The notes: generated by a model from the sequence alone, not told the origin. A DNA stretch of 39,300 nt from Escherichia phage vB_EcoP_F (NC_047808.1), one strand, 5' to 3'. Shown: positions 7,357 through 32,634, numbered from the stretch's first letter. Numbers and translations are program-made.

Positions 7357-7447
7357 ACTGTAGTCAAGGACTTTAGGTAACACCTTAATAGAAGCTCACT
7401 TAGGGTCATCCTACTTATTGGTCCATCCTAGTGTCGCCTGACCTACG

Positions 7448-7490
7448 GTCCTTGACCTACAGTGGCTGTGGCCTACAGTAGTGACGATGA
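7448..7490 (+). repeat. short imperfect direct repeats (GACCTACGG / GACCTACAGTGG / GGCCTACAGTAG), right-end array
   Basis: Three CCTACAG-like units at about 14-bp spacing immediately before predicted terminus; analogous to T7 short-repeat array adjacent to terminal repeat. Confidence 0.3.
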
Positions 7491-7517
7491 GTTTTGGACC
7501 AAAAGTTTGAGACCACA

Positions 7518-7715
7518 TCTCACAGTTCAAGAACCTCAAGTCTCCCCATAGGCCCTCTTTAAGTCCAGACCAAAGGCCCTACCCAGTCTATCATAAGGCT
7601 GGACCGATGGTCGACGATAGGTCTAGGCTATGGCTGGAGGTCAGGACGATAGGTAGGGACTATTGGTCTGTCTCTGAGTCTCTATCTGTATAGTGATATA
7701 GTATAACATTACGTC
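7518..7715 (+). other. predicted physical genome terminus and terminal-repeat region (single collapsed copy); left end predicted at 7518
   Basis: TCTCACAGTTCAAGAACC..CCCCATAGG at 7518 resembles recalled T7/T3 left-terminal sequence (TCTCACAG..); non-coding; flanked by short-repeat arrays; right boundary not determinable. Confidence 0.3.
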
Positions 7716-7815
7716 CTACACCTACAGTCCTACACCTACAGTCCTACAACCTACAGTCCTACAACCTACAGTCACAACCATAAGACACCAACACCTACAG
7801 TCATAGACCTACAGT
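7716..7815 (+). repeat. array of imperfect short tandem repeats (unit approx CCTACA[A]CCTACAGT, 14-15 bp period)
   Basis: cctacacctacagtcctacacctacagtcctacaacctacagtcctacaacctacagtc.. seen directly; position equals T7 left-end short-repeat array. Confidence 0.5.
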
Positions 7816-17813: not shown

Positions 17814-19517
<1,704 letters not shown>

Positions 19518-19550
19518 TTACGAGAAGTATAAATGGAGGGTTCCATTCTA

Positions 19551-19856
19551 ATGTTACGAAAACTTAAAGCTCGCTACCATCGGTTCATGTACAAATGGTG
19601 GAGTGACGAAGCAACCTGCCTGTCCAACATTCTGGGAGACCAAAGGTTCGAAGGCGTGGGGAGGGTAAAGCTCGCTACCATCGGTTCATGTACAAATGGT
19701 GGAGTGACGAAGCAACCTGCCTGTCCAACATTCTGGGAGACCAAAGGTTCGACTCCGAGGCGTGGAAGAGAGCTAACCGGAAGTTTATGTATCACTTCTT
19801 GCGTACAGACTTCTAGGTCTAGACTCAAGGTCATTCATAGCGAGTGGCCTGTATGA
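19551..19856 (+). CDS. hypothetical protein ORF altered by an internal 101-bp tandem duplication (gene 4.x region)
   Basis: GGAGGG RBS before ATG 19551; reading passes through repeat copy 1 in one frame and copy 2 in another. Confidence 0.3.
   Translation: MLRKLKARYHRFMYKWWSDEATCLSNILGDQRFEGVGRVKLATIGSCTNGGVTKQPACPTFWETKGSTPRRGRELTGSLCITSCVQTSRSRLKVIHSEWPV
19565..19766 (+). repeat. tandem direct duplication, period 101 bp, 87 bp identical (19565..19651 = 19666..19752)
   Basis: Seen directly: TAAAGCTCGCTACCATCGGTTCATGTACAAATGGTGGAGTGACGAAGCAACCTGCCTGTCCAACATTCTGGGAGACCAAAGGTTCGA twice. Confidence 0.85.
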
Positions 19857-19870
19857 TTAGACTAAAGCGG
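19814..19870 (+). promoter_or_regulatory. candidate RNase III site (R4.7 position) with motif TAGACTCAAGGTCAT
   Basis: Motif at 19820..19834 in intergenic leader of gene 5. Confidence 0.3.
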
Positions 19871-19880
19871 AGGATTAACC

Positions 19881-22052
19881 ATGTTTGACTTTAAGAGTAT
19901 CTGGGGTTCTGACATCGAGACCAACGGTCTCCTTGATACAGTCTCCCAGTTTCACTGTGGGGTCCTGATTAACGCCGAGTCGAATGAGACCCTTAAGTAT
20001 GGGGTAGCTCCGATGGTCGGTATCGTCGGCGGCTTCAAAGAGTATGTTCATAAAGTGGAAGAGATTGCCGCATCACCTGATGGTATGCTGGTATTCCATA
20101 ACGGTATCAACTATGACGTCCCGGCTATAGACAAGCTGAAGCGTTTGTACTTTGGGAAACGCTTTAACTTCCCGAAACATAAGATGATTGATACCTTGGT
20201 GCTGGGACGCTTGATGTATCCAAACATTAAGTTCTCAGACATGGGCGCAGTGAAAGCTGGTCGTCTGCCACCTAAGATGATGGGACGCCAGTCTCTTGAG
20301 GCTTGGGGCTATCGTCTCGGTGAGATGAAAGGTGAGTACAAACACGATTACGTTGCCAAGTGCAAGGCTGAAGGTATCGAATATAAGGCTGGGGACGAAT
20401 GGTTGTTCCCGTCTCAGGAGATGCTGGACTATAACGTTCAAGACGTTGTGGTCACACTGGCGTTGTTCAAGAAGTTCCTGACTGACAAGTATTACTTCCA
20501 GTCTGAACAGTTCGCTTTCGACCAGATTTATGCGTTGCGTCTGGAACATGATGCTGCGTGGACCTGTGCGAAGATGGAACGTAACGGCTATCCGATGAAC
20601 ACCGAGATGGTCGAAGGTTTATATCGTGAACTCACCGTCAAACGTGCAGAGCTGCTGGACAAGCTGCGTTCGACTTTCGGCAGCTGGTACGCACCAAAGG
20701 GAGGCAAGGAGTTCTTCAAGCACCCACGGACAGGCAAGGACCTTCCGAAGTATCCGCGCGTCGTGTATCCTAAGGTCGGGTCAGTATTCAAGAAGCCGAA
20801 GAACAAAGCTCAACGCTTAGGTCTGGAGCCTTGCGAGTTCGACTCACGAGACACGATGGAGGGAGCGCCGTTCACACCTATCACTTACGTTGAGTTTAAT
20901 CCGGGAAGCGGGGACCACTTAGCGAAAGTTCTGATGGAGCGTGGCTGGGAGCCTGTGGACTTCACTGACACCGGGAAACCTGTAGTCGATGACGAGACGT
21001 TGGAACACGTTAAGTTACCAGACGCAGAGGCTCAGGCTTGCGTAGAGCTGGTCCGTGAATATCTGGTGGTCCAGAAGCGCATCGGTCAGGCTGCTGAAGG
21101 TAAGAACGCATGGTTGAAACTTGTAGGTCCAGACGGGCGTATGCACGGTTCAATCAACCCATGCGGGGCAGTAACCGGACGTGCGACTCACAGTTCACCA
21201 AACATGGCTCAGGTCCCGGCTAACGGTGCTCCATACGGTGAGACTTGCCGTGGTGCTTTCGGTGCAGCGTGGAACAAGAAGGACGGTACGCCAGACCCTT
21301 GGATTCAAGTAGGCGTGGATGCTTCAGGTCTTGAGCTTCGTTGTCTGGGGAACCGAGCGGCTCCGTTTGATGGTGGCGCCTATGCGAAGACTGTGGTCGA
21401 AGGTGACATCCACTGGGCCAACGCAGTCAACGCTGGGTTAGCACCTAACGTCCCACGCAATAAGTCCAGCCACGACCATGATGCTTTCCGTAACAACGCT
21501 AAGACGTTCATCTATGCGTTCCTATATGGTGCAGGGGCCGCGAAGATTGGACTGATAGTTGGCGGTGGTAAGAAGGAAGGTGCTGCCCTGATGAAGAAAT
21601 TCATTGAGGGTACACCAGCTATTAAAGACCTCAGGGAAGCTGTGAGTAATACGTTAATCTCCGAATCCAAATGGGTAGATGGAGAGAACATCGTGAAGTG
21701 GAAACGTCGCTGGCTGAAAGGTCTGGATGGTCGCCGTATCCACATCCGGTCTCCACACTCAGCACTAAACGCATTACTTCAAGGCGATGGTGCGGTTGTC
21801 TGTAAGCACTGGATTGTAGAGACTGAACGTATGCTTGAAGAGGCAGGGTATGTTCACGGCTGGGAGGGGGACTTCGCGTACATGGCCTGGGTTCACGACG
21901 AATTGCAGATTGCGTGCCGTACTCAGGAGATTGCCGAAGAAGTCGTCAAGATTGCTCAACTTGCTATGCGTAAGGTGGGTGAGTTCTATAACTTTAAATG
22001 TGTCCTTGATACCGAAGGTAAGATTGGACCAACGTGGAAGGAGTGTCACTAA
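19881..22052 (+). CDS. DNA polymerase gp5 (family A, with 3'-5' exonuclease)
   Basis: 723 aa; position and size as T7 gp5; GGAGG RBS. Confidence 0.95.
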   Translation: MFDFKSIWGSDIETNGLLDTVSQFHCGVLINAESNETLKYGVAPMVGIVGGFKEYVHKVEEIAASPDGMLVFHNGINYDVPAIDKLKRLYFGKRFNFPKHKMIDTLVLGRLMYPNIKFSDMGAVKAGRLPPKMMGRQSLEAWGYRLGEMKGEYKHDYVAKCKAEGIEYKAGDEWLFPSQEMLDYNVQDVVVTLALFKKFLTDKYYFQSEQFAFDQIYALRLEHDAAWTCAKMERNGYPMNTEMVEGLYRELTVKRAELLDKLRSTFGSWYAPKGGKEFFKHPRTGKDLPKYPRVVYPKVGSVFKKPKNKAQRLGLEPCEFDSRDTMEGAPFTPITYVEFNPGSGDHLAKVLMERGWEPVDFTDTGKPVVDDETLEHVKLPDAEAQACVELVREYLVVQKRIGQAAEGKNAWLKLVGPDGRMHGSINPCGAVTGRATHSSPNMAQVPANGAPYGETCRGAFGAAWNKKDGTPDPWIQVGVDASGLELRCLGNRAAPFDGGAYAKTVVEGDIHWANAVNAGLAPNVPRNKSSHDHDAFRNNAKTFIYAFLYGAGAAKIGLIVGGGKKEGAALMKKFIEGTPAIKDLREAVSNTLISESKWVDGENIVKWKRRWLKGLDGRRIHIRSPHSALNALLQGDGAVVCKHWIVETERMLEEAGYVHGWEGDFAYMAWVHDELQIACRTQEIAEEVVKIAQLAMRKVGEFYNFKCVLDTEGKIGPTWKECH

Positions 22053-27071: not shown

Positions 27072-27956
27072 ATGTCTCAATCAGTTTATGCCGAGTTCGG
27101 CGTTAGCTCTAATGCAATCACTGGTTCCGTTGAGGACCTGAACGAACACCAGAAGTCTATGCTTGAACAGGACGTAGCTGTTCGTGATGGCGATGACGCT
27201 ATTACCTTCAAGCAACTGGAAGCCGAAAACGAAGAGGCGACCGAAGAAGACGAGAACGTCGAAGAGACTGGGGGTGATGAAGACAACGAGTCCGATGACG
27301 AAGAGTCGGAGGACGATGGTGAGCAGCCTGAGTTCATCGAACTGGGTGATGCACCGAAAGATCTGACCGAAAGTGTCACCGCTCTGGATGAAAACGAAGC
27401 TGCATTTGACGACATGGTGTCTTCTGCTGTAGAAGCTGGCAAGGTCACTGCTGATGAAATTACCGCTATCAAGGCTGAATACGCCAAGGACGGTAAGCTG
27501 TCTGACGCATCCTACGCTAAGTTGCAGGAAGCAGGTTACACCAAGCGCTTCGTAGATTCGTTTGTCCGTGGTCAGGAAGCTCTGGCTGAACAGTATGCCG
27601 CTGGTGTGGTTCGCTACGCTGGTGGTGCTGAACAGTTTAATCGCATCCTGTCACACCTTGAGGCCAACGACCCGTCAACTCGTGAAGCACTGGAAGCTGC
27701 TATCGTTCGTAAGGACATTGCGACTACCAAAGCTCTGCTGAATCTGGCTGGCAAGACTCTGGGTAAAGCTGTGGGTGTTAAACCTCAGCGTACCATCACC
27801 ACTCAGGCTAAACCTGTGGTCGCACCTAAGGCTCCTCAGACCGAAGCATTCAGCTCCAAGGCTGACATGATTAAGGCTATGAGTGACCCGCGATACCTGC
27901 GTGACGCTAAGTACACGATGGAAGTTCGCGCTAAGGTAGCCGCCTCAAGCCTGTAG
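27072..27956 (+). CDS. capsid assembly (scaffolding) protein gp9
   Basis: Start set to ATG 27072 (AAAGGAG RBS); acidic; SYAKLQEAGYTKRFVDSFVRGQEAL and KAMSDPRY match recalled T7 gp9. Confidence 0.85.
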   Translation: MSQSVYAEFGVSSNAITGSVEDLNEHQKSMLEQDVAVRDGDDAITFKQLEAENEEATEEDENVEETGGDEDNESDDEESEDDGEQPEFIELGDAPKDLTESVTALDENEAAFDDMVSSAVEAGKVTADEITAIKAEYAKDGKLSDASYAKLQEAGYTKRFVDSFVRGQEALAEQYAAGVVRYAGGAEQFNRILSHLEANDPSTREALEAAIVRKDIATTKALLNLAGKTLGKAVGVKPQRTITTQAKPVVAPKAPQTEAFSSKADMIKAMSDPRYLRDAKYTMEVRAKVAASSL

Positions 27957-27957
27957 G

Positions 27958-27980
27958 ACTAAACTATCACTATAGGGAGA
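27958..27980 (+). promoter_or_regulatory. phage RNA polymerase promoter (phi10 position), ACTAAACTATCACTATAGGGAGA
   Basis: Best consensus copy; GGGAGA initiating region as in T7 phi10. Confidence 0.85.
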
Positions 27981-29256: not shown

Positions 29257-29262
29257 TTGAAA

Positions 29263-29299
29263 CCCCTTGGGTGCCTTCGGGTGCCTGAGGGGTTTTTTT
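29263..29299 (+). terminator. intrinsic terminator (Tphi position): CCCCTTGGGTGCC-UUCG-GGTGCCTGAGGGG + T7
   Basis: 13-bp stem (with G-U pairs), UUCG tetraloop, seven T residues; directly after capsid gene. Confidence 0.8.
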
Positions 29300-29318
29300 G
29301 CTTAAAGTGAGGATGATT

Positions 29319-29408
29319 ATGTTTTACTTACTTACAGCCTTGGGACTATTTGTTAGTTTCTGGGCGATTATATTATTAACCGGACCATGCAGTCCTTACG
29401 ACAGATAG
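29319..29408 (+). CDS. hypothetical small hydrophobic peptide, 29 aa, between terminator and gene 11
   Basis: GAGG RBS; MFYLLTALGLFVSFWAIILLTGPCSPYDR; low certainty. Confidence 0.3.
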   Translation: MFYLLTALGLFVSFWAIILLTGPCSPYDR

Positions 29409-29416
29409 GAGGGAGT

Positions 29417-29983
29417 ATGGCTCAATACATTCCACTGAATGCTAACGATGACTTAGACGCTATCAACGATATGTTAGCTGCTATCGGTGAACCGGCAGTC
29501 CTACAGCTTGACGAGGGGAACGCTGACGTCTCGAACGCCCAACGTATCCTGCATCGTGTCAATCGTCAGGTCCAAGCTAAAGGCTGGAACTTTAACATCA
29601 ATGAAGCTGCTGTCCTGACACCTGATGTCCAAGACAATAGGATTCGATTCTTGCCGTCATACCTTCGTGTAATGACCGCTGGGGCCACCAGCTACTACAG
29701 CAACATGGGTGGATACCTGTACGACCTGTCCACTCAGTCGACCACTTTCACCGACCCTATCACGGTAGAGCTTGTGGAGATGAAGCCATTCTCCGAGATG
29801 CCTGTGGTCTTCAGGGACTACATCGTCACTAAAGCTAGCCGTGAGTTCAACGCTAAGTTCTTCGGTAGCCCAGAGTCTGAACTGTACCTTCGTGAGCAGG
29901 AAGCAGAACTCTATCAGCAGGTCATGGAATACGAGATGGATACTGGTCGCTACAACATGATGTCTGACATCGGGAGAGACTAA
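29417..29983 (+). CDS. tail tubular protein A gp11
   Basis: Start ATG 29417 (GGAGGGAG RBS); AAIGEP, KGWNFNINE, FRDYIVTKASREFNAKFFG, MEYEMD match recalled T7 gp11. Confidence 0.9.
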   Translation: MAQYIPLNANDDLDAINDMLAAIGEPAVLQLDEGNADVSNAQRILHRVNRQVQAKGWNFNINEAAVLTPDVQDNRIRFLPSYLRVMTAGATSYYSNMGGYLYDLSTQSTTFTDPITVELVEMKPFSEMPVVFRDYIVTKASREFNAKFFGSPESELYLREQEAELYQQVMEYEMDTGRYNMMSDIGRD

Positions 29984-30210
29984 TGTCTAGTCACAACCTG
30001 AAGATTCGCCGCCAGCACTTTGGTCCGGTACAGCTAGGTCTAAAGACAGCAGAGCTGAGACTTAACGACCGGGACTTTAAGGTTGGAGATTGGCTTATCC
30101 TGAATGAGTGGGACAACGGGTATACTGGACAACAGGTAGCGCGTAAGGTTGTCCACATTGCTGACGTTGGTGACATCGCTGAAGGATACGTCCTAATGAG
30201 TATAATTTAA
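29983..30210 (+). CDS. small ASCH/PUA-like (DUF3850-like) protein inserted between tail tubular genes
   Basis: 75 aa; pattern LKI..QHFGPVQLGLKTAELRLNDRDFKVGDWLIL resembles DUF3850/ASCH family by motif; ATGA coupling to gene 11. Confidence 0.45.
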   Translation: MSSHNLKIRRQHFGPVQLGLKTAELRLNDRDFKVGDWLILNEWDNGYTGQQVARKVVHIADVGDIAEGYVLMSII

Positions 30211-30219
30211 GGAGGGCCT

Positions 30220-32577
30220 ATGCCACTAATTACTCAATCAATCAAGAACCTTAAAGGTGGCATTAGCCAACAGCCTGATATACTGAGGTTCTCAGACCAA
30301 GGCGAGGCACAGGTTAACTGCTGGTCATCCGAGAGTGATGGCCTCCAGAAGCGCCCACCTACAGTCTTCAAGCGACGTCTTAACATCGACGTTGGGAGCA
30401 ACCCTAAGTTCCACCTGATTAACCGTGACGAGCATGAGCAGTATTACATCGTGTTCAATGGGTCCAACATTCAGGTAGTTGACTTGAGTGGTAATCAATA
30501 CTCAGTGTCAGGTGCGGTAGACTACGTTAAGTCCTCCAACCCACGAGATGACATCCGTGTCGTTACCGTGGCAGACTATACGTTCGTCGTTAACCGTAAG
30601 GTTGTCGTCAAAGGTGGAAGCGAGAAGTCACACTCTGGTTATAACCGCAAAGCACGAGCTTTAATTAACCTGCGTGGTGGACAGTATGGTCGAACCCTTA
30701 AGGTGGGAATCAACGGTGGCGTTAAGGTCTCGCATAAGCTACCAGCAGGTAATGATGCCGAGAATGACCCGCCTAAGGTGGACGCTCAAGCCATTGGTGC
30801 AGCTCTGAGAGACCTTCTTGTTACTGCCTACCCTACCTTCACGTTTGACCTTGGGTCTGGATTCCTGCTAATCACAGCTCCTTCAGGGACCGATATTAAC
30901 TCAGTGGAGACGGAGGATGGCTACGCTAACCAGCTAATAAGCCCAGTCCTAGACACTGTGCAGACAATCTCTAAACTACCTCTTGCCGCTCCTAATGGGT
31001 ATATCATTAAGATTCAAGGTGAGACAAACAGTAGCGCCGATGAATACTACGTGATGTATGACTCCAACACTAAGACGTGGAAGGAGACAGTGGAGCCGGG
31101 AGTTGTCACTGGGTTCGATGTCACCACAATGCCACATGCTCTGGTAAGACAGTCTGACGGCTCCTTTGAGTTCAAGACTCTGGATTGGTCCAAGCGTGGT
31201 TCTGGTAACGATGACACAAACCCTATGCCTAGCTTCGTGGATGCTGCGATTAATGATGTGTTCTTCTACAGGAACAGACTTGGGTTCTTGTCGGGTGAGA
31301 ACGTAATCATGAGCCGTTCAGCCAGCTACTTTTCGTTCTTCCCTAAGAGTGTGGCGACACTGAGTGATGATGACCCTATTGATGTAGCTGTAAGTCACCC
31401 TCGAATCTCAATCCTTAAGTATGCCGTTCCGTTTAGCGAGCAGCTACTACTTTGGTCGGATGAGGTTCAGTTCGTGATGACAAGCTCTGGGGTCCTTACC
31501 TCGAAGTCTATCCAGCTTGATGTAGGCTCAGAGTTTGCCTTAGGCGACAATGCCAGACCGTTCGCTGTAGGACGCTCAGTCTTCTTCTCAGCTCCTCGTG
31601 GGTCATTCACCAGCATTAAGCGATACTTCGCTGTAGCTGATGTGTCTGATGTGAAGGATGCTGATGATACAACCGGTCACGTATTGTCCTACATCCCTAA
31701 CGGGGTGTTTGATATTCAAGGTACAGGGACTGAGAACTACATCTGCGTCAACTCTACAGGTGCATACAACCGTATCTACATCTACAAGTTCTTGTTTAAG
31801 GACGGCGTACAGCTTCAAGCCTCTTGGTCACACTGGGAGTTCCCTAAAGATGATAAGATTCTGGCGTCTGCTTCTATTGGCTCTACCATGTTCATCGTTC
31901 GTCAGCATCAAGGAGGGGTAGACATTGAGCACCTTAAGTTCATCAAGGAGGCAACTGACTTCCCGTCAGAGCCATATAGACTACACATTGACTCCAAGGT
32001 GTCTATGGTAATTCCAATTGGCTCATATAATGCTGACACCTATAAGACTACGGTTGACATTGGTGCTGCTTATGGTGGCAACGCTCCGTCTCCCGGTCGG
32101 TACTATCTGATTGACAGTCAGGGTGCTTATGTGGACCTTGGGGACTTGACCAGTATCTCTACTGTGATTACCCTCAACGGCGATTGGTCAGGACGTACAG
32201 TGTTCATCGGACGGCCCTATCTGATGTCCTACAAGTTCTCACGGTTCCTGATTAAGATTGAAGATGATAGGGGCACTCAGTCTGAAGACACTGGTCGTCT
32301 ACAGCTTCGTCGGGCCTGGGTCAACTACAAGGACACTGGCGCTCTGAGACTCATTGTCAGAAACGGTGAGCGAGAGTTCGTTAACACCTTTAATGGGTAC
32401 ACCCTTGGTCAGCAAACCATAGGGACTACTAACATTGGTGACGGGCAGTATCGCTTCGCTATGAATGGTAACGCATTAACCACGAGTCTAACCTTAGAGT
32501 CCGACTATCCTACCCCAGTGTCCATCGTTGGGTGTGGCTGGGAGGCATCATACGCTAAGAAAGCTCGTTCAGTCTAA
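30220..32577 (+). CDS. tail tubular protein B gp12
   Basis: 785 aa; position and size as T7 gp12; AGGAGGG RBS. Confidence 0.9.
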   Translation: MPLITQSIKNLKGGISQQPDILRFSDQGEAQVNCWSSESDGLQKRPPTVFKRRLNIDVGSNPKFHLINRDEHEQYYIVFNGSNIQVVDLSGNQYSVSGAVDYVKSSNPRDDIRVVTVADYTFVVNRKVVVKGGSEKSHSGYNRKARALINLRGGQYGRTLKVGINGGVKVSHKLPAGNDAENDPPKVDAQAIGAALRDLLVTAYPTFTFDLGSGFLLITAPSGTDINSVETEDGYANQLISPVLDTVQTISKLPLAAPNGYIIKIQGETNSSADEYYVMYDSNTKTWKETVEPGVVTGFDVTTMPHALVRQSDGSFEFKTLDWSKRGSGNDDTNPMPSFVDAAINDVFFYRNRLGFLSGENVIMSRSASYFSFFPKSVATLSDDDPIDVAVSHPRISILKYAVPFSEQLLLWSDEVQFVMTSSGVLTSKSIQLDVGSEFALGDNARPFAVGRSVFFSAPRGSFTSIKRYFAVADVSDVKDADDTTGHVLSYIPNGVFDIQGTGTENYICVNSTGAYNRIYIYKFLFKDGVQLQASWSHWEFPKDDKILASASIGSTMFIVRQHQGGVDIEHLKFIKEATDFPSEPYRLHIDSKVSMVIPIGSYNADTYKTTVDIGAAYGGNAPSPGRYYLIDSQGAYVDLGDLTSISTVITLNGDWSGRTVFIGRPYLMSYKFSRFLIKIEDDRGTQSEDTGRLQLRRAWVNYKDTGALRLIVRNGEREFVNTFNGYTLGQQTIGTTNIGDGQYRFAMNGNALTTSLTLESDYPTPVSIVGCGWEASYAKKARSV

Positions 32578-32584
32578 CTTATTG

Positions 32585-32634
32585 AAGGGCCTATAGATTT
32601 ACCTTAACTATCACTATAGGGACTATAGGCCCTT
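32585..32634 (+). promoter_or_regulatory. perfect 12-bp inverted repeat (AAGGGCCTATAG / CTATAGGCCCTT) enclosing the phi13 promoter; candidate RNase III site R13
   Basis: Arms at 32585..32596 and 32623..32634 seen directly. Confidence 0.4.
32602..32624 (+). promoter_or_regulatory. phage RNA polymerase promoter (phi13 position), CCTTAACTATCACTATAGGGACT
   Basis: Consensus match, GGG start. Confidence 0.75.

Follow-up and report, generated by a model that had tools for sequence, protein, structure and literature searches.

A short open reading frame between tail tubular genes 11 and 12

The window, by which we mean the whole stretch of 39,300 nucleotides from Escherichia phage vB_EcoP_F (NC_047808.1) that was analysed, contains a small open reading frame (ORF) between genes 11 and 12, both of which encode tail tubular proteins (Table 1). 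An initial annotation, made from the sequence alone, had described a 75-residue ASCH/DUF3850-like ORF in this place, and the ORF list returns it at the same coordinates and with the same protein sequence. It had also remarked that T7 has no gene between 11 and 12, and the T7 junction indeed consists of a 23-nucleotide spacer only. The proposed coupling of the ORF to gene 11 holds insofar as the stop codon of gene 11 and the start codon of the ORF overlap, but the overlap is TAATG, with one base in common, and not the ATGA that had been suggested. The same TAATG forms the junction between genes 11 and 12 in phages K1F and ZG49.

Table 1. Features in and around the DUF3850 locus (window coordinates)
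Feature	Position	Strand	Remarks
Phage RNA polymerase promoter (φ10 equivalent)	27952..27976	+	Repeat family CCTAAACTATCACTATAGG; nearest phage promoter 5' of 10-11-DUF3850-12
Tφ-like terminator hairpin (strong) after gene 10	29259..29296	+	
Gene 11 (tail tubular protein A / adaptor), upstream coupled gene	29417..29983	+	gp11 100% identical to K1F over 188 aa
Shine-Dalgarno-like GGGAGAG, from Gly-Arg codons near the 3' end of gene 11	29972..29978	+	4 nt 5' of the ORF ATG; sequence reading
TAATG stop/start overlap, putative translational coupling	29981..29985	+	Gene 11 TAA 29981-29983; ORF ATG 29983-29985
DUF3850/ASCH ORF	29983..30210	+	75 aa plus TAA stop; 8.5 kDa, pI 6.8; from the ORF list
Extra 237 nt relative to K1F, directly after the common ATG	29986..30222	+	ORF body, stop, spacer and new gene 12 ATG; pairwise alignment with K1F
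ASCH octapeptide codons G19-L-K21-T-A-E24-L-R26 (GxKxxExR), putative catalytic/ligand pocket	30037..30060	+	
AAGGAGG Shine-Dalgarno for gene 12, overlapping the ORF stop codon	30209..30215	+	Sequence reading
Gene 12 (tail tubular protein B / nozzle), downstream gene	30220..32577	+	Allele co-varies with the DUF3850 allele

Upstream of gene 11 its frame stays open for ten more codons, back to an ATG at 29387 (29387-29416). The annotated start at 29417 corresponds to the K1F-type N terminus MAQYIPLN, and the gene 11 annotation of ZG49 uses the longer form, which begins at the equivalent of 29387.

Fusion of the ORF product to either neighbour was considered and rejected. A gp11-DUF3850 fusion by -1 frameshifting would have to pass a TGA at 29965-29967, which closes the ORF frame five codons before its ATG, and a slippery heptamer is absent. 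As for read-through into gene 12, the ORF ends in TAA and in this phage has the same frame as gene 12 (237 nt apart). Other alleles separate the two by 229 or 241 nt, or have a junction with 2 nt more or 3 nt fewer than here (loci L010 and L022); these place the ORF and gene 12 out of frame, and read-through was rejected for this reason. A search for regulatory RNA gave no Rfam match at the gathering thresholds in the window, and the fold energy of positions 29940-30260 is ordinary (z = -0.6).

The gene is already known. In Escherichia phage vB_EcoP_FFK3 (ON548433, 39,300 bp, Kayfunavirus) the ORF is annotated as 'DUF3850 domain-containing protein', and the RefSeq and other records of its relatives carry the labels 'RNA-binding protein', 'activating signal cointegrator' or 'hypothetical protein'. 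Since it is annotated in the public records of FFK3 and about 150 relatives, and is a recognised member of the DUF3850 family, the novelty of the gene itself is low. The ORF is 100% identical between the window and ON548433. The two sequences as such differ, with 99.6% identity over 29300-30900, 99.3% over gene 11 and 98.3% over 19500-19900.

Protein family and fold

The ORF product matches the Pfam family DUF3850 (PF12961) over nearly its whole length, with residues 4-74 aligned to profile positions 2-77 of 77 (E 9.5e-20; 71 bits against a gathering cut-off of 22.9). The ASCH family (PF04266) is matched above its cut-off as well (E 2.6e-5; 25.3 bits against 21.2), over profile positions 10-61 of 103 only, which is the N-terminal half of that domain. 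PHROG 986, named 'RNA-binding protein', matches with an E value of 1e-34, and among the NCBIfam models none matches. The sole solved relative found by sequence is PDB entry 3IUW (E 6.8e-11).

Structure prediction from the single sequence with AlphaFold gave a pLDDT of 49.5. When AF2 was supplied with an alignment of 63 sequences, drawn from a profile search that returned 1,794 clusters at E <= 1e-3, the pLDDT rose to 97.3. The resulting model shows five strands that form a barrel and a single short helix, and thus reproduces the fold of 3IUW, a β-barrel of about 80 residues with one short helix. The α-helical C-terminal part of a complete ASCH domain is missing: the protein ends at residue 75, and the aligned ASCH structures comprise 102-159 residues. 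DUF3850 is a truncated, minimal version of the ASCH domain. The PUA-like ASCH/DUF3850 identity proposed in the initial annotation is borne out by profile scores above threshold and by the match to 3IUW, and the predicted barrel agrees with it; together, the HMM matches, the structural relative and the high-confidence model confirm the fold assignment.

Distribution and selection

The occurrence of the gene was compared in K1F and 23 IMG/VR genomes. A DUF3850 gene is present at 12 of these 24 loci and absent from the other 12. In GenBank, megablast finds 210 records that match gene 11 and 145 that match the insert, which leaves about one-third of the relatives without it. Genome-wide searches of K1F and ZG49 for a DUF3850 homologue gave chance matches only with tblastn and nothing at E <= 1 with hmmsearch, and yet their gp11 is 100% and their gp12 98-99% identical to the proteins of this phage. 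Because these two phages have no homologue of any kind, the DUF3850 gene is dispensable for an infectious phage. By the same absences, and those from T7 and from one-third of the relatives, it is not a conserved virion protein, which would be expected in every phage of the group with these tail proteins; we infer that it is not a part of the virion. The polymorphism among relatives supports the description of the ORF as an accessory gene.

Where the gene is present, its alleles are diverse and its frame is intact. Proteins encoded at the same site are 96, 84, 68, 61 and 44% identical to the ORF product, the 84% allele being that of L010, the 68% allele that of L031 and L032, the 61% allele that of Pectobacterium phage LET1 and the 44% allele the type found in Citrobacter phage CR44b. 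Against the 84%-identical allele, dN/dS is 0.10-0.13 at a dS of about 1. Judged by these substitution rates the ORF is under purifying selection, though it is cleanly lost in some lineages. The Pfam match, the dN/dS ratio and the 145 near-identical GenBank copies confirm, at the level of sequence, that the frame is not open merely by chance. We regard its DUF3850/ASCH identity together with its accessory status as practically certain.

The GC content of the ORF is 0.478, compared with 0.50 for the genome, and a recent foreign origin is not supported by this value.

Junction types and a proposed history of the insertion

In K1F, the type species of Kayfunavirus, genes 11 and 12 are joined directly. 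The 237 extra nucleotides of the window follow the ATG that is common to both sequences, and the ORF thus uses as its start the initiation codon of K1F gene 12.

Three types of junction occur among the 24 compared loci. Type (a), represented by K1F and ZG49, has no insert, and gene 11 ends in ggg agR gac TAATG. The insert-bearing type (c) has this same end. In the T7-like type (b), the final codons of gene 11 are ggt cga gac, and a spacer of 14-16 nt (TAATAGGAGGTGATatg) follows. The codons ggg agR are found in all 19 loci in which the next start codon overlaps the gene 11 stop (17 with the DUF3850 gene, K1F and ZG49) and in none of ten spacer loci, where the same Gly-Arg residues are coded by ggt cga or agc cga. 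It is this codon choice, GGGAGR, that creates a Shine-Dalgarno sequence four nucleotides upstream of the overlapping ATG. At the other end of the insert, alleles of DUF3850 other than that of the window have GGAGGTGAT as the Shine-Dalgarno sequence of gene 12, as in the insert-free T7-type junction.

The most economical history of the locus would run from gain through coupling to loss, an order derived from comparison of the present-day junctions. A T7-like 11/12 junction would have received the DUF3850 gene; such an ancestor is suggested because the L010 and L031 alleles retain the old GGAGGTGAT before gene 12. A coupling site would then have evolved inside gene 11. Finally, K1F and ZG49 would have lost the DUF3850 gene precisely, with the coupling site left behind as a scar.

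Exchange at the locus appears to have a sharp limit. Compared with the window, L031 and L032 have a gp11 that is 99.5-100% identical, a DUF3850 protein that is 68% identical and a gp12 that is 74% identical. The DUF3850 allele therefore tracks gene 12 and not gene 11, which points to a recombination boundary at the gene 11 stop and DUF3850 start.

Other cargo is found at the same junction. Escherichia phage KM02 (L035) has an HNH endonuclease gene after the DUF3850 gene, at 1223-1663, and Hafnia phage yong1 and Enterobacter phage B1 (ORF41) apparently have the same arrangement. The endonuclease of these three phages has about 145-158 residues and is presumably of the HNH homing type; its gene separates the DUF3850 gene from gene 12, whose start it overlaps. 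Such insertions suggest that the 11/12 junction is a permissive site that takes up cargo recurrently.

Transcription and translation

Between position 27976 and the ORF there is no copy of the CCTAAACTATCACTATAGG promoter; the next copy after the φ10 equivalent precedes gene 13, at 32604-32620 (listed at about 32596). Eleven copies of this consensus occur in the window, at 571, 6828, 9721, 12788, 14447, 15428, 17548, 24132, 26953, 27952 and about 32596. A promoter belonging to the ORF itself was not found: the one promoter-like repeat nearby, at 29811-29835, is just 72% similar to the phage promoter consensus, and sigma-70 matches are at background level. Genes 11 and 12 of T7 are likewise reached by read-through past the terminator Tφ. 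Because it has no promoter of its own and lies downstream of both φ10 and the Tφ-like hairpin, the ORF is, on this reading, part of the late read-through message 10-11-12. Its protein should be made late and in amounts tied to those of gp11, since its start overlaps the gene 11 stop and its Shine-Dalgarno sequence is formed by the last codons of gene 11.

Other features of the genome and of related records

A direct tandem duplication of 100/101 nt, with copies that are 94% identical, lies at 19565-19765 of the window. It sits in an unannotated gap between the end of the primase/helicase gene (19517) and the start of the DNA polymerase gene (19881), and a 107-residue ORF at 19533-19856 spans it. 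Among the relatives listed, those that cover the full 401-nt query match over just about 300 nt of it, and the duplication therefore looks specific to the window genome. Either it arose recently and interrupts a small ORF of the gene 4.x type, or it is an assembly artefact. In the early region, at 7436-7815, there are at least five copies of a 14-nt direct repeat (CCTACACCTACAGT and variants), which could be origin-like or regulatory.

Three database records are at odds with their host names. The 11-12 region of Enterococcus phage EFA-1 (MT350292) is 96.5% identical at the DNA level, Acinetobacter phage vB_Aba_01KA (PV615262) is 96.9% identical over 19500-19900, and the DUF3850 protein of Staphylococcus phage MBBL139 (OR786095) is 82.7% identical. 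Since phages labelled as infecting Gram-positive bacteria or Acinetobacter match a coliphage so closely in the compared regions, these host labels are probably wrong, or the sequences are contaminants.

A conserved pocket and the activity it may support

The octapeptide of the ASCH superfamily is reportedly GxKxx[E/T/S]xR, as described by Iyer, Burroughs & Aravind in 2006, and the ORF product contains it. A profile alignment to the PDB sequence of YqfB, an N4-acetylcytidine amidohydrolase of Escherichia coli with an ASCH domain, places G19, K21, E24 and R26 of the ORF product on G19, K21, T24 and R26 of YqfB; BLASTP against an approximate YqfB sequence gave no match. In the alignment of 63 diverse homologues, K21, E24, R26, D29 and E42 are invariant, and H4, K7, G19, N28, R30, D36 and Y47 are nearly so. 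The pair K21 and E24 is the Lys and Glu dyad of the GKER subgroup of ASCH proteins. In a set of 120 homologues, the pattern K..[E/D].R is found in 119 and the full GxKxxExR in 109. The protein is likely to be more than a mere scaffold because it has too many fixed polar residues for one.

ASCH domains have recently been connected with N4-acetylcytidine (ac4C). In a preprint, all 19 ASCH proteins tested, including GKER members, removed ac4C from Escherichia coli tRNA in vitro (bioRxiv 10.64898/2026.02.27.708502). The 19 proteins assayed were longer ASCH proteins, with no DUF3850 or phage protein among them (bioRxiv 10.64898/2026.02.27.708502). Deacetylation of tRNA by the GKER subgroup required both the Lys and the Glu of the octapeptide, and EOLA1 tolerated a change of Glu to Asp (bioRxiv 10.64898/2026.02.27.708502). 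An earlier study, in the account that this preprint gives of it, saw no activity on free ac4C with ZmASCH, TRIP4 or EOLA1, all of the Glu type (via bioRxiv 10.64898/2026.02.27.708502). Exactly the Glu to Asp change tolerated in EOLA1 is seen in the CR44b-type allele of the phage gene.

With the octapeptide intact and ac4C removed by other ASCH proteins, an N4-acylated cytidine is our best guess for the ligand. The ORF product would bind a cytidine that carries an N4-acyl group, in tRNA, in other RNA or as a free nucleoside, and would hydrolyse the acyl group, in other words act as an ac4C 'eraser'. Its obvious substrate in E. coli would be ac4C34 of elongator tRNA-Met, which is the known tRNA ac4C site of that organism.

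Several observations count against such an activity. Enzymes of the YqfB type have a Thr in the octapeptide (GKTR) and a general acid, Glu74, whereas the ORF product has E24 in the position of Thr24 and no residue aligned with Glu74, the profile alignment ending near residue 54 of YqfB. The C-terminal helical half of the ASCH domain is absent from the ORF product, and removal of ac4C34 from tRNA-Met would bring a phage no obvious benefit. ZmASCH is reportedly a ribonuclease, so the substrate could differ. The same is indicated by a structure of the TRIP4 ASCH domain with double-stranded DNA (PDB 9kyl), and the early or replication-region position of the gene in other phages would agree equally well or better with a role connected with DNA.

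On balance, and by analogy with other ASCH proteins, we lean slightly towards the view that the ORF product uses the K/E/R pocket to act on a nucleoside or nucleic acid. That it is specifically an N4-acylcytidine amidohydrolase is a tentative proposal and, taken singly, rather unlikely. A broader idea is more speculative still, and we think it improbable: DUF3850 proteins might be phage erasers of host RNA modification, the Kayfunavirus copy stripping ac4C or another N4-acyl mark from tRNA-Met or other RNA, late and in bulk. If this were true, late decoding might be retuned or a tRNA-directed host defence blunted, and erasure of modifications would be a widespread phage strategy, with the domain present in at least 557 sequenced phages.

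Alternative roles of the DUF3850 protein

The barrel may merely bind RNA or DNA, possibly at a modified base, and in this way modulate late translation, RNA stability, or DNA replication or packaging. Binding is implied by the public label 'RNA-binding protein', and it fits both the PUA-like superfamily and the replication-region contexts of related genes. However, five invariant charged residues in a protein of 75 residues look more like an active site, and other ASCH proteins use the same Lys and Glu for catalysis; we consider a non-catalytic role unlikely. A function against host defence would be in keeping with a gene whose presence is polymorphic and whose alleles diverge fast (44-96% identity at one site), as is typical of host-interaction genes. 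The protein would remove or mask a nucleic acid mark that is sensed by host immunity, or repair or alter tRNA attacked by an anticodon nuclease or acetyltransferase toxin, and would be needed only on hosts with the corresponding system. DUF3850 is also a common small stand-alone gene in unrelated phages and prophages, and megablast finds the insert in 58 of 59 relatives named after Salmonella and in none named after Citrobacter, Shigella or Cronobacter. Phylogeny and the clonal make-up of phage collections confound this apparent host preference, and among the Citrobacter phages CR44b has a divergent allele after all. A late gene, moreover, cannot protect the incoming DNA unless its protein is packaged. 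PADLOC-DB gives just a partial match of 14 bits (E 0.007) to PDC-M07B, which does not mark the ORF product as a defence component, and no link between DUF3850 and defence was found in the literature. The anti-defence role, one of the possibilities named in the initial annotation, is speculative throughout and less probable than simple binding.

From its place between two tail-tube genes one might take the product for an assembly factor of the tail or a minor virion protein, but K1F and ZG49, with near-identical gp11 and gp12, and T7 do without the gene, its homologues in other phages lie outside structural modules, and the ASCH matches are far stronger than any match to tail proteins. Band-based mass spectrometry of phage B1 virions identified six structural proteins, and the 75-residue ORF40, which occupies the same position, is not among them (PMC12785254); this is weak evidence, because a protein of 8.5 kDa lies below the band range of 10-180 kDa (PMC12785254). 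We consider a structural role extremely unlikely. Hardly more probable is a passenger gene without function, left over from horizontal transfer at a junction that tolerates it. The gene is dispensable and the junction accepts other cargo, such as the HNH endonuclease in KM02 and apparently in yong1 and B1. Against a passenger stand a dN/dS of about 0.1 at a dS of about 1, a frame that no allele has lost, even at 44% identity, motif residues that are invariant, a dedicated Shine-Dalgarno sequence maintained by the codon choice of gene 11, and a GC content like that of the genome.

The account that we prefer is that T7-like phages of the Kayfunavirus type carry in this ORF a true accessory gene that they can do without, that it encodes a stand-alone minimal ASCH (DUF3850) β-barrel of the PUA-like kind, and that this protein is made late, with N4-acylcytidine as the likeliest target of its activity. 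Taken as a whole, with all its parts, this account is plausible and has somewhat less than an even chance of being right.

The locus offers an experimental handle on DUF3850, with a protein of 75 residues and five invariant charged positions, and K1F and ZG49 serve as natural precise knock-outs with near-identical flanking genes. Together with the ac4C work on ASCH domains, the small size and these natural nulls would allow a cheap test of the eraser idea for hundreds of phage DUF3850 genes. The locus is also an example of how a T7-like phage may fit in an extra gene: the insert takes over the start codon of the next gene, and its ribosome-binding site is written in the codons of the previous gene, where it can stay as a scar after clean loss.

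Comparison with known DUF3850 and ASCH proteins

A literature search on DUF3850, P2 orf91, the Kayfunavirus RNA-binding protein and ac4C with phage returned no functional study of the DUF3850 family. YqfB and other ASCH amidohydrolases have about 103-160 residues and C-terminal helices, which the 75-residue ORF product does not have, and the octapeptide has Thr in YqfB and Glu in the ORF product. Longer relatives of DUF3850 contain the domain in tandem copies or fused to a winged helix-turn-helix of the LexA type. A 2025 survey in PNAS lists DUF3850 among the commonest phage-enriched partners of the ParB-CTPase fold (PMC12704722), and one ParB-CTPase-DUF3850 fusion bound CTP (PMC12704722). These fusions of prophages share the DUF3850 domain with the ORF product and are multidomain, CTP-binding and usually encoded beside parA; the ORF product, in contrast, is the bare domain, with neither ParB nor ParA nearby. 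By analogy, the fusion partners would fit a theme of nucleic acids or cytidine nucleotides.

The closest structural counterpart is 3IUW, a protein of 83 residues from Enterococcus faecalis V583 (NP_814290.1) that was solved by structural genomics and named 'activating signal cointegrator'. No structural difference separates it from the ORF product; what differs is the genomic setting, since a T7-like phage here has the domain in its late tail operon, which is unusual. The domain is widespread in unrelated phages and prophages as a small gene of its own, and tblastn finds it in 557 of 50,697 phage records. Small homologues with 35-64% identity include P2 Orf91 and the genes of K1G, Rtp-like, T1-like, Listeria and Gordonia phages, the last labelled 'ASC-1 transcription coactivator'. 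Orf91 of P2 directly follows the replication nickase gene A, the gene of an Erwinia lambdoid phage lies between a helicase gene and ninX, that of an Rtp-like phage adjoins a DNA helicase gene, and that of a Listeria phage stands among small genes of unassigned role. Since the other phages inspected place the gene in early, replication or nin-type regions, the Kayfunavirus copy, which is late and coupled to a tail gene, occupies a position that is atypical for DUF3850.
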